Assembly: GCF_048403405.1 (NCBI RefSeq)
Contig: NZ_CP183129.1
Direction: 5' to 3' (one strand)
DNA: 64,000 nucleotides
From: Escherichia coli
Lineage (GTDB): Bacteria > Pseudomonadota > Gammaproteobacteria > Enterobacterales > Enterobacteriaceae
Shown here in pieces: positions 1,122-43,612 of the stretch. The translations under genes were made by a program, and so were the position numbers. The notes beneath the pieces are model-generated. The model worked only from the letters and a program-made list of their open reading frames with translations. It did no database searches and had not been told where the DNA came from. Within the stretch, counting starts at the first letter, position 1, and each line of letters starts with the position of its first letter.

Positions 1122-1383
1122 GTAATCCGCCTCCTTTGGATTAATACGAGTTGATATTTGTTACAAAACATTTTGATTTTATCAGATTTATTTTTATTGA
1201 TAAGTGTCAATTGATTAGCTGGTATAGAGTGAGGCATATAGAAGGGCTGGTCTGTATCAGTATGTGATGCAAAAATCCCACAGTTTCATGGAATTTTTGC
1301 ATTTAGAGCTGTGAGATAGGGTGCCTTATCGACCTTACCCTGGCAACCGATTGACGGGGGATTACTCCCCCGTCGCGGTTTCC

Positions 1384-1524
1384 TTACTGCTTACACTGTA
1401 AGAACGCCGCAAACTCCGCTCCCCAGAAGCTCATCCGTATTTCACACAGCGAACCGTGCAGCATCCAGATGATGAGGATTACCGTCACGCAGAACGTGAT
1501 GGCCGTAAGCGATTTTTGCGACAT
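1384..1524 (-). CDS. Hok/Gef-family type I toxin (46 aa)
   Basis: Below the ORF-track size cutoff. Hand translation gives MSQKSLTAITFCVTVILIIWMLHGSLCEIRMSFWGAEFAAFLQCKQ. It has a TM helix, then SLCEIR, then a G.EFAAF..C signature like Hok (SLCEIR...EVAAFMAYE). An AAGGAG lies 7 nt upstream of the ATG. A strong hairpin GACGGGGGA-GUAA-UCCCCCGUC at 1353-1374 follows the stop. Confidence 0.7.
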   Translation of the reverse strand: MSQKSLTAITFCVTVILIIWMLHGSLCEIRMSFWGAEFAAFLQCKQ

Positions 1525-1714
1525 AGCGCTTGCTCCTTTTTCGGGGAGGCGCTAACCTATCACTTGCTTAGGGTAGACGGTTAGGGCCTCGGTTAAACAA
1601 AAGTGTTTTCCGGGGCCTTTCCACATCCGGCCATCGGGTATTCCCTCCGACCATCAGCCGAAAGGCACCCGCGCGTAATCTATCGCTTTTTTGTTACTCC
1701 GGCAATTCTGCCTG

Positions 1715-27097: not shown

Positions 27098-27412
27098 TTA
27101 TTCTGGGAATAAGGTCTGAATATTCTTTTTTATTCTATAAAAATTGCATTCAACTCCGCTAGGCTGATTATCCTGGTATGTTTCCTTGATGCTAACGGTA
27201 TTGAAGGGGAGGTTGTCCTCTGGCCATTCGGCCATCCAGTAGGCAAATGCTGGGTTGCGCTTTATGAGCGCTAGCCCAGCCAGAAAGGCCGCGCGTTGCG
27301 CGCGGCTGCGTTCGGAGGCTGGTAGGCTATCGAGGTAATTGCACGCCTCCTGTTCACTCTTGACGGCGGCGGGCTTCAGATAGAAACTTATCCGTCTGGT
27401 TGGTGTCGTCAT
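27098..27412 (-). CDS. parR: ParR-like centromere-binding adaptor
   Basis: Trimmed to ATG 27412. MTTPTRRISFYLKP...YLDSLPASERSRAQRAAFLAGLAL parallels R1 ParR (..TLDSIPQGERSRLNRAALTAGLAL). Confidence 0.8.
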   Translation of the reverse strand: MTTPTRRISFYLKPAAVKSEQEACNYLDSLPASERSRAQRAAFLAGLALIKRNPAFAYWMAEWPEDNLPFNTVSIKETYQDNQPSGVECNFYRIKKNIQTLFPE

Positions 27413-27416
27413 TGGT

Positions 27417-28376
27417 TTACTCCTTGTCCATTGCGTACAGCCCATTAACCAGAGCAAACTGTGGCACCCCGTCCGCGATGAAAGTCGCATTAACTCCGCA
27501 GACTTCGCGGATAGCGGGTGCCACAATCTCCGCCCCTCCACCGACAACCATCACCCGCCCGTAACCCGAAAAAACCGCCAGCGCGCGGATCACGCGTTGT
27601 TTCAGTGTTTCTTCCTTTTCACGAATAACCGCCATCAGGCTGGCGTAATGCGCGTCATTGTGGATGTGCTGGCGCAGCCAGGCTTCATCATGGCGATGTT
27701 CGATAATGGTATTGGCGATGTGGTGACTGGTGCGCATACCGTTAGTGGCCATCACCGACAGTACGGCATCGGCCATCAGGGAAACGCCTACGTGTGGATC
27801 GCAAAACACCTGGCTGATACCTGCCAGTTGCCCTTGAACCTTTGCCACATCCAGCGTGGTTCCGCCTAAATCCACAATCAGCAGGGATTCAAACGGACTC
27901 ATGTCAGCCAGTGCTTTAAAGCCAGCCGGAATGGATTCAGGCATAACCCGCACGTTACGGATAGTGAATGCTTCGCCGTTCTGGTACTCCACCGAGCGCA
28001 TAACGTTCGCTTTTTTGCGGTTGATGTTGGCCATGTCCGGCTGTGCGTTTGTCTCGAAATACTCGCTCAGTGGCAGGGTGACAACCACATCCACCTCTTG
28101 TGGCGTGATGCCTGATTTGACCAGCGCGTGATGAATGGCGATTACATTCACATCGCTGTACTGGTATTGCGTGTCGGTCGTCTGGACAAAGCGATCGCTG
28201 ACCGGATCAAAACCATAGCGCACGCCATCAAGCATGTAGTTCGCGGGCTGCATGCCACCGAACGGCGCAGACCATTCCGACTTGAAGCTGTTCGGGCTGA
28301 TGGCGTTGCGGCGTTCGCCATTCTCAGTCCATGCCAGCTTGATGTTGGTGGAGCCGTCGTCGATACAAATTTTCAT
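27417..28376 (-). CDS. parM: ParM/StbA actin-like segregation ATPase
   Basis: MKICIDDGSTNIKLAW...ISPNSFKSEW...YSDVNVIAIHHAL...VMPESIPAGF...LIVDLGGTTLD...GVSL...VMVVGGGAE is colinear with plasmid R1 ParM as I remember it. Confidence 0.95.
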   Translation of the reverse strand: MKICIDDGSTNIKLAWTENGERRNAISPNSFKSEWSAPFGGMQPANYMLDGVRYGFDPVSDRFVQTTDTQYQYSDVNVIAIHHALVKSGITPQEVDVVVTLPLSEYFETNAQPDMANINRKKANVMRSVEYQNGEAFTIRNVRVMPESIPAGFKALADMSPFESLLIVDLGGTTLDVAKVQGQLAGISQVFCDPHVGVSLMADAVLSVMATNGMRTSHHIANTIIEHRHDEAWLRQHIHNDAHYASLMAVIREKEETLKQRVIRALAVFSGYGRVMVVGGGAEIVAPAIREVCGVNATFIADGVPQFALVNGLYAMDKE

Positions 28377-31982: not shown

Positions 31983-32040
31983 GGTGTGGCCTCTTTGCTC
32001 GGTGATAGAAATAACTCACCATCCAGAGTTGAGAATCTCG
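31983..32040 (-). promoter_or_regulatory. downstream target copy (a2/b2-like): UUCUCAAC (32035->32028) ... GAGCAAAGAGG (32000->31990, contains SD)
   Basis: Exact complementarity to the two exposed boxes of the 32120->32041 RNA. Confidence 0.6.
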
Positions 32041-32120
32041 GGGTGGCGAGACGTACAGGGTTCTCAACACCGGAGAGCAAAGAATCCGGCCCGACCGAAG
32101 TCGGCCCCGTACGCCCCGCC
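32041..32120 (-). ncRNA. C4-type antisense RNA (P1/P7 c4-like), ~79 nt
   Basis: Hand-folded. A 16-bp closing stem GGCGGGGCGUACGGGG/CCCUGUACGUCUCGCC (13 WC + 3 GU) is followed by a 3' ACCC. Inside are the hairpins CCGAC-UUCG-GUCGG and CCGGA-UUCUUUGCUC-UCCGG, then single-stranded UGUUGAGAA. TTGCCA-17-AATTAT lies immediately upstream (32149->32121). Confidence 0.6.
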
Positions 32121-32161
32121 ATAATTCTGACGCGAAAAAGACGTGGCAATACAGTACGCAC

Positions 32162-32182
32162 AAAAAAACCGCTTGCGCGGTT
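32162..32182 (-). terminator. intrinsic terminator-like hairpin inside the early operon
   Basis: The minus strand reads AACCGCGCAAGCGGUUUUUUU. Confidence 0.5.
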
Positions 32183-32184
32183 AT

Positions 32185-32216
32185 GCGCTTTGCTCTGTAT
32201 CGGGTTGAGAATCCCG
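32185..32216 (-). promoter_or_regulatory. upstream target copy (a1/b1-like): CGGGAUUCUCAACCCG hairpin ... AGAGCAAAG
   Basis: Same two boxes as the downstream copy, with an 8-nt spacer instead of 27 nt. Confidence 0.55.
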
Positions 32217-32304
32217 GCACCCGTTTTATGAGGTGCAGCGGAAATGTAACCTGACCGATTGAGGCATGGCAAGCGGTTTTTTTGTGTGTGCATGTTCTGG
32301 TTTC

Positions 32305-36582: not shown

Positions 36583-37740
36583 TTGTCAGAGACTGAAAAA
36601 TGGTTAAAAATCCTTGTTGATGAAAATATGCCTTATGCCCGCGACTTATTTAGCCGTTTGGGTGAGGTGACCGCGGTTCCCGGGCGTCCAATTCCCGTGG
36701 CTCAACTGGCAGACGCGGATGCGATGATGGTGCGTTCGGTCACGAAAGTGAATGAATCTTTGCTGGCAGGAAAACCCATTAAATTTGTTGGCACTGCCAC
36801 CGCGGGGACCGACCATGTCGATGAAGCGTGGTTAAAGCAGGCGGGAATTGGTTTTTCCGCGGCACCTGGCTGTAATGCGATTGCGGTGGTGGAATATGTT
36901 TTCTCCTCACTGCTGATGCTTGCCGAACGCGATGGATTTTCACTGCACGAGCGTACCGTGGGGATCGTGGGCGTTGGTAACGTTGGTCGCCGTTTACAGG
37001 CGCGACTGGAAGCGTTAGGGATTACAACCTTGCTTTGCGATCCGCCCCGCGCCGACCGTGGGGATGAGGGGGATTTCCGCTCGCTGGATGAATTAGTTCA
37101 GCATGCGGATATTCTGACTTTCCATACGCCACTCTTTAAAGATGGTCCGTACAAAACGCTGCATCTGGCGGATGAAAAACTGATCCGCAGCCTGAAGCCG
37201 GGAGCGATTCTGATTAACGCCTGCCGTGGCGCAGTTGTCGATAATACCGCCCTGCTGACCTGCCTGAACGAAGGCCAGAAGTTAAGCGTAGTGCTGGATG
37301 TCTGGGAAGGCGAACCGGAACTTAACGTGGAATTGCTGAAAAAAGTGGATATCGGCACGCCGCATATCGCAGGCTATACCCTGGAAGGTAAAGCACGCGG
37401 TACTACGCAAGTGTTTGAAGCTTATAGCAAGTTTATTGGGCATGAACAGCACGTTGCGCTGGATACATTACTGCCCGCGCCAGAGTTTGGTCGCATTACG
37501 CTGCATGGCCCGCTCGATCAGCCAACGCTGAAAAGGCTGGTGCATTTGGTGTATGATGTGCGCCGCGATGACGCACCGCTGCGTAAAGTCGCCGGGATAC
37601 CGGGTGAGTTCGATAAACTGCGCAAAAACTATCTTGAGCGCCGTGAATGGTCATCTCTGTATGTGATTTGTGATGACGCCAGCGCGGCATCATTGCTGTG
37701 TAAACTGGGTTTTAACGCCGTTCATCATCCGGCACGTTAA
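36583..37740 (+). CDS. pdxB: erythronate-4-phosphate dehydrogenase
   Basis: The protein matches K-12 PdxB from [15 protein letters not shown] onward. The start here is probably TTG 36583, 8 nt after AGGAG. The codon at the position I remember as Met1 of K-12 PdxB reads TTA. Confidence 0.93.
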
Positions 37741-43428: not shown

Positions 43429-43612
43429 TTGCCTGATGCGACGCTGGCGCGTCTTATCAGTCCTACGCAGGAGTAGAACCGTAGGTCGAATAAGGCGTTC
43501 ACGCCGCATCCGACAGCCGTTGCCTGATGCGACGCTGGCGCGTCTTATCAGGCCTGCGCAGGGGTAGAACCGTAGGTCGAATAAGGCGTTCACGCCGCAT
43601 CCGACACGCATT
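43429..43612. repeat. BIME: two tandem ~91-bp units, each with an inverted pair of REP elements
   Basis: TTGCCTGATGCGACGCTGGCGCGTCTTATCAG..GTAGGTCGAATAAGGCGTTCACGCCGCATCCGACA occurs twice (starting at 43429 and 43520). This is the canonical E. coli REP sequence. Confidence 0.9.

Follow-up and report, generated by a model that had tools for sequence, protein, structure and literature searches.

The window analysed here, a stretch of 64,000 nucleotides from Escherichia coli (contig NZ_CP183129.1 of assembly GCF_048403405.1), contains a short coding sequence (CDS) on the minus strand just beyond the ogr gene of a P2-like prophage. This CDS of 141 nt, hereafter called hok, is preceded by a ribosome-binding site (RBS), followed by a GC-rich stem-loop, and embedded in what is predicted to be a type I toxin-antitoxin cassette of the hok/sok type (Table 1). 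The locus had been pointed out in a first-pass annotation made from the DNA letters alone. The 46-codon open reading frame (ORF) and the peptide given there matched exactly, and the AAGGAG Shine-Dalgarno (SD) sequence and the 9-bp GC hairpin after the stop codon were both present.

Table 1 Features of the hok cassette and its neighbours; positions are those of the window
Feature	Position	Strand	Observations
hok ORF	1384..1524	minus (1524->1384)	46 aa, MSQKSLTAITFCVTVILIIWMLHGSLCEIRMSFWGAEFAAFLQCKQ; Hok/Gef profile matches; identical to WP_000078920.1
hok RBS, AAGGAG	1538->1533	minus	8 nt before the ATG
Predicted hok promoter, -35 TTGCCG	1700..1705	minus	10 nt past the ogr stop; conservation among diverged cassettes starts here
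Predicted hok promoter, -10 TAGATT	1677..1682	minus	17-nt spacer; TAAATT, TACATT or TAGAAT in homologues
Predicted full-length hok mRNA	1319..1670	minus	about 352 nt, GGGUGCC to GGCACCC
tac-like 5' element GGGUGCCUU	1662..1670	minus	pairs with 1327->1319 when closed, with GGAAAGGCCCC (1621->1612) when open
ucb-like box GGAAAGGCCC, extending to C1611	1612..1621	minus	closed: pairs with GAGGCC; open: pairs with tac
GAGG, relic of a mok RBS	1587..1590	minus	homologous to GAGG-N8-AUG of 933W mokW and of the R1-type locus
RBS-masking hairpin GCGCCUCC...GGAG(CAA)GCGC	1520..1547	minus	RNAalifold columns 124-131 with 140-151; 96-100% of cells paired (20 sequences)
dcb-like box GCGGAGUUUGCGGCGU in the hok CDS	1404..1419	minus	predicted partner: hok start region AUGUCGCAAAAAUCGC (1524->1509)
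3' stem-loop GACGGGGGA/TCCCCCGTC	1353..1374	minus	9-bp GC hairpin, 9 nt past the stop
fbi-like 3' element AAGGCACCC	1319..1327	minus	conserved cassette ends here on the 3' side; all 9 nt complementary to the 5' end
Predicted Sok promoter TTGCTC-17-TAACCT	1530..1558	plus	-35 overlaps the hok RBS; 6 of 12 consensus positions
Predicted Sok-like RNA, about 55-58 nt	1565..1622	plus	5' tail, hairpin GGGCCUCGG...CCGGGGCCU, UUU; fold -22.6 kcal/mol
Zinc-ribbon membrane protein, 110 aa	789-1121	minus	phrog_6586, E 1.7e-41; weak DrpB-like match
VasI/TagO-like protein gene	1-785, cut by the window start	minus	PF11319, 89 bits on the full-length twin; phrog_1848

The predicted 46-aa peptide matched the Pfam family HOK_GEF (PF01848) at 30.1 bits (E 3.7e-7, residues 7-44 of 46) and, over its full length, phrog_251 of the PHROGs collection ('MokW-like host killing', E 2.5e-23). 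Both profiles bear out the Hok/Gef signature that had been recognised in the first-pass annotation, and the Pfam hidden Markov model search proposed as a check placed the peptide above the gathering score of 22 bits. All of the conserved Hok residues listed in a recent survey of Hok diversity were found in the peptide (M1, C12, T14, L26-C27-E28 and E37), as was the hydrophobic helix at the N terminus, and every homologue that was found carries a Hok/Gef name. The best NCBIfam match was the HokA equivalog NF007290 at 35.8 bits; as this is far under the equivalog cut-off of 89, the protein is not an orthologue of HokA. With NF007279, the model for the Hok subfamily in general, the score was 23.6 bits, the cut-off being 73. 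Judged by these profile scores, the peptide is a member of the Hok family and not an orthologue of any named Hok of E. coli K-12. Escherichia, Salmonella and Klebsiella all retain an intact ORF of 46 codons and, 8 nt before it, the AAGGAG, at peptide identities of 61-98%; truncated, frameshifted and read-through variants occur at low frequency.

The locus had been described as unannotated, which did not hold. The chromosome of E. coli CRE1540, a near-identical twin (100% identity over 1300-1720), carries the identical CDS beside ogr with the PGAP name 'Hok/Gef family protein' (WP_000078920.1), and hok is annotated as 'MokW-like host killing' in the RefSeq records of P88-like peduoviruses (P88, Xuanwuvirus P884B11, 500465-2, Chuche and 520873). 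This label was considered as a sign of identity with hokW and rejected, being a family name only; HokW is a different paralogue of 51 amino acids. The exact window peptide is also entry 1628, in the 60%-identity cluster 72, of the Hok diversity survey (bioRxiv 10.1101/2025.08.07.668861). Two members of cluster 72 were cloned under pBAD in that survey, 72_1621 (V15A relative to the window peptide, 45 of 46 residues identical) and 72_1589, a variant from a Shiga toxin (Stx) phage. Both are implied to be toxic on expression, because neither is among the three of 45 constructs that were non-toxic (bioRxiv 10.1101/2025.08.07.668861). The survey reported a four-fold enrichment of hok genes in prophages; it covered coding sequences only, and Mok, Sok and the mRNA elements were explicitly deferred to future work (bioRxiv 10.1101/2025.08.07.668861). 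The find of the gene is already known from RefSeq, PHROGs and the recent catalogue, a one-residue variant having been assayed for toxicity, and the novelty is limited to the cluster-wide absence of mok and the anatomy of the cassette, neither of which is in the survey.

Diverged copies of the locus, with 74-90% nucleotide identity, align to about 1310-1691 of the window and no further. They were found next to lom in Stx/lambdoid prophages, between J and a tail-fibre gene, in P2-like prophages, as a tandem pair by serS, by ykgM, on IncI1 and IncF plasmids (one IncF copy being a pseudogene) and at chromosomal sites. Outside E. coli, they were found as tandem triplets in Salmonella and standalone in Klebsiella oxytoca. 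As the same segment is shared in many contexts, the unit is a mobile cassette of about 387 nt and not the ORF alone. Of 5,426 complete E. coli genomes, 1,752 contained cassettes of the window type, at most nine copies being found in one genome. Under the match, ogr was annotated in about two thirds of the matching records, a share estimated from an evenly spaced sample of the ranked records, which corresponds to roughly one E. coli genome in five.

A long structured leader had been proposed at 1525-1715. The structure was found, but the leader most likely starts at 1670 and not at 1715, because 1671-1705 make up the predicted hok promoter. This promoter matches 8 of 12 consensus positions and was not called in a consensus promoter scan. 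Since the scan called neither the hok promoter nor the Sok promoter described below, both assignments rest on conservation and on homology to sokW, the antisense gene of the Stx2 phages 933W and Sp5.

The 352-nt hok mRNA folded with a minimum free energy of -156.8 kcal/mol (z -5.67), with a 15-bp helix closing the 5' end on the 3' end. For comparison, 20 cassettes from Escherichia, Salmonella and Klebsiella were aligned and evaluated with RNAalifold and explicit pair counts; unless stated otherwise, counts of 20 refer to this set. The consensus structure had 97.5% of cells paired, against 94.6% in shuffled alignments (none of 500 as good), and 12 compensatory (double-change) pairs where 6.5 were expected, a number reached by none of the 500 shuffles. 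In slid controls, 37-45% of cells were paired. The alignment supports the conserved leader fold with tac-, ucb- and fbi-like elements, the second check proposed in the first-pass annotation.

The 5' end of the mRNA has two alternative partners. The pairing of the tac-like with the fbi-like element (columns 1-7 with 364-370) had 98.6% of cells paired, with wobble changes only: five of the seven scored pairs were standard in all 20 sequences, the changes were G-C to G-U and U-A to U-G, and one pair was broken in two sequences. Homology between cassettes ends directly after the fbi-like element. In the alternative tac/ucb stem, GGG-GCCUUUC pairs with GGAAAGGC-CCC over 10 bp, with 98.5% of cells paired; two of the ten pairs are compensatory, UA being replaced by CG in five sequences and CG by GC in two. 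The ucb-like box aligns to the corresponding element of the Rfam RF01794 consensus, and when 34 nt were removed from the 3' end of the RNA, the centroid fold adopted the tac/ucb stem. These comparisons and the fold models support a hok mRNA with two mutually exclusive conformations, a closed tac/fbi form and an open tac/ucb form.

A long-range helix between the dcb-like box and the hok start (columns 153-168 with 261-276) had 97.5% of cells paired. The part of the CDS that bears GCGGAGUUUGCGGCGU has 88% nucleotide identity, compared with 69% in the 5' half, which its predicted pairing with the hok start region explains. An AACCG/CGGUU helix was also supported in the alignment. The 3' stem-loop had 99.4% of cells paired and compensatory changes in five of its nine pairs; it is predicted to be the protective 3' end of the processed, active mRNA, by analogy with its counterpart, the stabilising last stem-loop of the truncated R1 hok mRNA (PMC9841398).

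The Rfam model RF01794 aligned end to end with 1670->1511 at 43 bits (E 1.5e-7), under the gathering score of 59; the controls 933W and an R1-type plasmid locus gave 113.5 and 87.2 bits, respectively. As the score is below threshold, the RNA half of the cassette (mRNA leader and Sok) goes unannotated. RF01794 is named 'sok antitoxin', and its matches were on the sense strand of the hok mRNA, at 603-777 in 933W (the hokW strand) and at 232-403 in the R1-type locus; sokW of 933W is annotated on the strand opposite to the match. Since the model spans transcription start to hok start, its strand calls are to be read as hok leader.

On the plus strand, the promoter-like TTGCTC-17-TAACCT had been reported at 1529-1557; the sequence was there, and the coordinates were one base low. 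The hairpin followed by UUU, which had also been reported, was present as GGCCTCGG...CCGGGGCC and TTT at 1585-1620. The start of the Sok-like RNA, at about 1565, was inferred from the annotated sokW. The -10 hexamer was TAACCT in 18 of the 20 homologues and TATCCT in the other two, both from Salmonella. The same TAACCT is found at the same relative position in sokW of 933W/Sp5, where the spacer is likewise 17 nt and the -35 again overlaps the hok RBS. Changing it to GAGCCG in a 'promoter-less' sokW construct abolished antitoxin activity (PMC8621323), the mutated hexamer having been identified by comparing the published mutagenic primers with the 933W sequence (PMC8621323).

The palindromic segment could fold into a hairpin on both strands, but in every one of the 20 cassettes the plus-strand (Sok) hairpin was the more stable (mean -21.8 kcal/mol, against -13.1 kcal/mol for the mRNA strand), a gain of about 8.6 kcal/mol which arises because the wobbles are G-U on the plus strand and C-A on the mRNA strand. 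The segment opposite the Sok 5' tail was the most variable part of the cassette, with 63% mean identity against 88% in the adjacent segment, a pattern that fits a putative specificity determinant preventing cross-talk among co-resident copies. The consensus promoter and terminator scans called neither a Sok promoter nor a Sok terminator in the window. A Sok-like antisense gene is predicted here, and the comparative evidence for it is good.

In plasmid R1, the start codon of mok (nt 116-118) lies behind GAGG at 104-107, and Hok synthesis requires translation of mok at least up to the hok RBS (PMC9841398). The first-pass annotation had found no mok-like frame in the window, and this was confirmed and holds across the whole of cluster 72. 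GAGG is kept in 19 of 20 cassettes, as GAGGCC. No start codon follows it, and in 12 of the 20 cassettes no ORF beginning with ATG, GTG or TTG reached the hok RBS, the other eight having scattered, non-homologous starts. The same script recovered both positive controls, 933W mokW and the R1-type plasmid locus, each with GAGG-N8-AUG and a frame of 70-71 codons. A stop triplet (UAA, UGA or UAG) is conserved after GAGGCC; it was rejected as a coding signal, since its A/G changes keep the pairing with U in helix 91-96:119-123. Longer Hok calls (59-81 aa) were likewise rejected as in-frame mok, all being C-terminal read-throughs or frameshifts. A literature search for mok-less hok genes or for hok in P2-like phages returned nothing specific.

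Following the R1 and hokW paradigms, the full-length, stable hok mRNA would be translationally inert. Slow trimming of its 3' end would remove the fbi-like element and flip the 5' end onto the ucb-like box, and an unstable Sok-like RNA would pair with +49..+106 of the trimmed mRNA and keep Hok off. If Sok synthesis stopped, on prophage loss, on shut-off of host transcription by an infecting phage or on induction, Hok would be made and the inner membrane depolarised. The role of mok in this scheme could, speculatively, be taken over by the RNA itself: in the open form, GAGGC(C)CUAAC would pair with GGUUAG(C)GCCUC and titrate the anti-SD from the hok RBS. Sok binding to GAGGCC... would free the anti-SD to close the RBS again, and cleavage by RNase III would probably also be triggered.

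In the centroid fold of the trimmed RNA, GAGGC-CCUAAC was indeed paired with GGUUAG-GCCUC, and the anti-SD, which covers AAGGAG when the RNA is closed, was thereby displaced. The accessibility of the RBS in partition-function calculations (mean of the 20 cassettes) was 0.34 in the closed RNA, 0.40 in the trimmed RNA and 0.34 when the Sok target was masked, a shift that was small and in the predicted direction in all 20. This RNA-switch model is speculative and loosely held; ribosome standby or plain RNase III-driven decay would be equally open explanations.

From the conserved toxin, the cassette boundaries, the two-state mRNA and the Sok-like gene, the segment 1705->1319 on the minus strand is very probably a complete mobile type I toxin-antitoxin cassette of the hok/sok type. 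It belongs to the 46-aa cluster-72 subgroup and is accessory cargo of a P2-like (P88/Xuanwuvirus-type) prophage in the 5' end of pdxB, located between ogr and attL. Several points weigh against this. The evidence is wholly in silico: transcription, processing, Sok expression and the toxicity of the exact allele are predictions. The hok and Sok promoters are both under the threshold of the consensus scan, the terminator tail of Sok has only three U and was not called in the terminator scan, and both the RF01794 score and the scores of the NCBIfam Hok models are under their respective cut-offs. The opening of the masked hok RBS lacks an explanation when mok is absent. The thermodynamic support for the RNA switch, with the accessibilities given above, is weak, and the switch helix is nearly invariant, so that covariation neither supports nor refutes it.

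The missing mok also suits the idea that the cassette is a silent relic, in which Hok has been untranslatable since mok was lost and the locus is kept by hitch-hiking with phages or for another role of the RNA. No upstream ORF reaches the hok RBS in the 12 cassettes mentioned above, although translation up to that point is mandatory in R1 (PMC9841398), and the predicted hok RBS is mostly paired in every modelled state. The rare truncated, frameshifted and read-through Hok variants and the IncF pseudogene point in the same direction. A relic is nevertheless unlikely when set against the intact ORF and AAGGAG kept across three genera, the prevalence and copy number in complete E. coli genomes, and the reported toxicity of expressed peptides. 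The switch architecture and the Sok hairpin are, moreover, kept by compensatory changes, an upkeep that would be pointless if the toxin were never made.

Alternatively, a short upstream ORF could substitute for mok. In the window, a 24-codon ORF (1626->1552), in frame, stops at the UAG of AGGUUAG, 12 nt before the hok RBS; termination at this point would let the ribosome open the anti-SD arm and thereby couple translation, and Sok would block initiation. All E. coli-type cassettes keep its AUG in the same position, +45, which is 4 nt past the Sok-complementary region, and the end of the ORF coincides exactly with the base of the RBS-masking hairpin in the window and in a few further copies. 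The AUG, however, is located in the 3' arm of a conserved 5' hairpin, which explains its conservation, and the weak GAAGG that precedes it elsewhere is lost in the window copy. The ORFs that start from it have 1, 8, 15, 19, 24, 25 or 79 codons in differing frames, two cassettes reading AUG-UAG or AUG-UGA, and the AUG is missing from all Salmonella and Klebsiella members. With neither length nor frame conserved, and with its absence from those two genera, the +45 ORF was rejected as a mok substitute, and such a mechanism is considered decidedly improbable.

That no antisense RNA is made, with control by mRNA folding and 3' processing only and the plus-strand signals as by-products of constraints on the mRNA, is very improbable: the promoter has only six of 12 consensus positions, the terminator three U, and the -35 and -10 coincide with the hok RBS and a paired mRNA segment, so that their conservation could be on the mRNA side, but the hairpin is the more stable on the plus strand throughout the 20 cassettes, the -10 equals the sokW hexamer whose mutation removed antitoxin activity, and the two Salmonella changes from TAACCT to TATCCT keep the critical T, A and T positions.

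With a hok/sok-type cassette retained as the preferred reading, a more far-reaching proposal can be put forward tentatively, the balance leaning somewhat against it. Cluster 72 may be a natural mok-less lineage of hok/sok, in which GAGG persists solely for a role at the RNA level, either as an anti-anti-SD or for ribosome standby. Control of hok by Sok would in that case be direct, by RNA refolding and cleavage and not by translational coupling, and the Sok-recognition segment would have diversified so as to insulate the up to nine co-resident copies from each other.

Cassettes of cluster 72 were also encountered in other settings. Many records of Stx2a-converting phages hold one next to lom, with 82% nucleotide identity to the window, and in most of these GenBank records there is no annotation under the match; phages of the 933W/Sp5 type separately carry hokW-sokW. 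Tandem arrays were seen in Salmonella enterica as triplets (at 1501/2140/2847 and 1501/2005/2503 of their stretches) and in E. coli as the pair by serS (89-229 and 563-703), and the copies within one array diverge most in the segment opposite the Sok 5' tail. An alignment-based profile search of the genome collection yielded only six loci, three of them in probably contaminated assemblies. Contigs labelled as a Planococcaceae metagenome-assembled genome and as Vagococcus sp. encode a Hok protein 100% identical to the E. coli type, and a Xanthomonas pisi contig encodes a 74%-identical Hok within cassette DNA that matches an E. coli Stx-phage copy. All three are most likely contaminating enterobacterial DNA.

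The P2-like prophage lies between flk and pdxB, in the order attL, VasI-like gene, zinc-ribbon gene, hok, ogr, D ... int, attR. The att core is a 20-bp direct repeat, AAAATCCTTGTTGATGAAAA, which duplicates the first codons of pdxB (36583-37740). Its right copy is at 36607-36626 of the window and its left copy outside the window, some 280 nt before position 1; in the twin genome, the left copy lies between flk and the VasI/TagO-like gene (2025-2044 of the twin stretch). The prophage is integrated into the 5' end of pdxB and regenerates its start. The first-pass annotation had placed hok at the ogr-att end of the prophage. It is indeed near the ogr end, but two AT-rich cargo genes (34-37% GC) that also belong to the prophage separate it from attL, and hok is therefore not the outermost gene. 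PADLOC models gave no match to Hok or to these two neighbouring cargo genes. In Salmonella, the same gpD-ogr-hok order was found at a prophage end next to ihfA/pheT, with a Hok that is 61% identical, and the linkage of hok and ogr is therefore old.

Elsewhere in the prophage, beside the replication gene A, the annotation of the twin has a segregation pair of a ParR-like protein (27098-27412, minus strand) and ParM (27417-28376, minus strand), which may hint at an episomal phase or be mere cargo. The early region between gene A and cox contains a match to C4 antisense RNA (32039-32126, minus strand, 78.5 bits) and, adjoining it, one to isrK (32162-32236, minus strand, 63.1 bits), both above their Rfam gathering scores. 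In the host flank beyond pdxB, Rfam gave a match to naRNA4, a REP-derived nucleoid-associated RNA (43484-43554, plus strand, 75.1 bits).

For annotators, it is of note that a hok cassette beyond ogr is routine in P88-type P2-like prophages of both E. coli and Salmonella, and that the abundant cluster-72 subgroup of Hok is without mok and has an RNA half that is missed at the Rfam threshold. The cassette may act in prophage addiction or stabilisation or in abortive infection, the roles put forward in the first-pass annotation; it may likewise exclude other phages, as reported for R1 hok/sok against T4, or bring lysis forward when the prophage is induced, which has been shown for hokW-sokW. To specialists in type I systems, it poses the modest but testable question of how translation of a masked hok, and its repression by Sok, are achieved in the absence of the leader ORF on which R1 depends. 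If the proposal is true, the paradigm type I family would include a second mode of regulation, the mok-less one, and about one in three E. coli genomes would possess it.

The closest comparison is with hok/mok/sok of plasmid R1. The two have in common the Hok membrane peptide, the tac/fbi closure, the alternative tac/ucb stem, the GAGG-ucb pairing, an upstream anti-SD masking the hok RBS, and a GC-rich 3' stem-loop followed by about 30-40 nt ending in fbi. As in R1, the -35 predicted for Sok in the window overlaps the hok RBS, and the predicted Sok hairpin contains the complement of GAGG. This is the two-state mRNA architecture described for R1 hok (PMC9841398). In contrast to the window cassette, in which no start follows GAGG, R1 has GAGG-N8-AUG at about +112 to +116 and a mok of about 70 codons. 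The leader in the window is about 25 nt shorter, with the hok AUG at +147, its Hok has 46 instead of 52 amino acids, and the R1-type locus scores 87 bits in Rfam against 43 bits.

With tisB/istR-1, there is only a mechanistic analogy, that of control at a standby site, and the toxin and RNA families are unrelated to hok/sok. In that system, the subject of work by Darfeuille et al. in 2007, the antisense RNA reportedly binds well upstream of a structured toxin start and not over it, and 5'/3' processing activates the mRNA. HokA of E. coli K-12 shares with the window Hok the C-terminal SLCE...ELAAFLAC-like motif. The hokW-mokW-sokW loci of the 933W and Sp5 Stx2 phages differ in encoding a 51-aa paralogue (MKQQKAM...) at a different locus in a different type of phage, and in having mokW as an in-frame 19-codon extension of hokW where the window cassette has no mok. 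Like the window cassette, however, they are prophage-borne, with the identical TAACCT, the 17-nt spacer and the overlap of the -35 with the hok RBS, and GGGUGC... at the 5' end and ...GCACCC as the 3' box recur in their mRNA.

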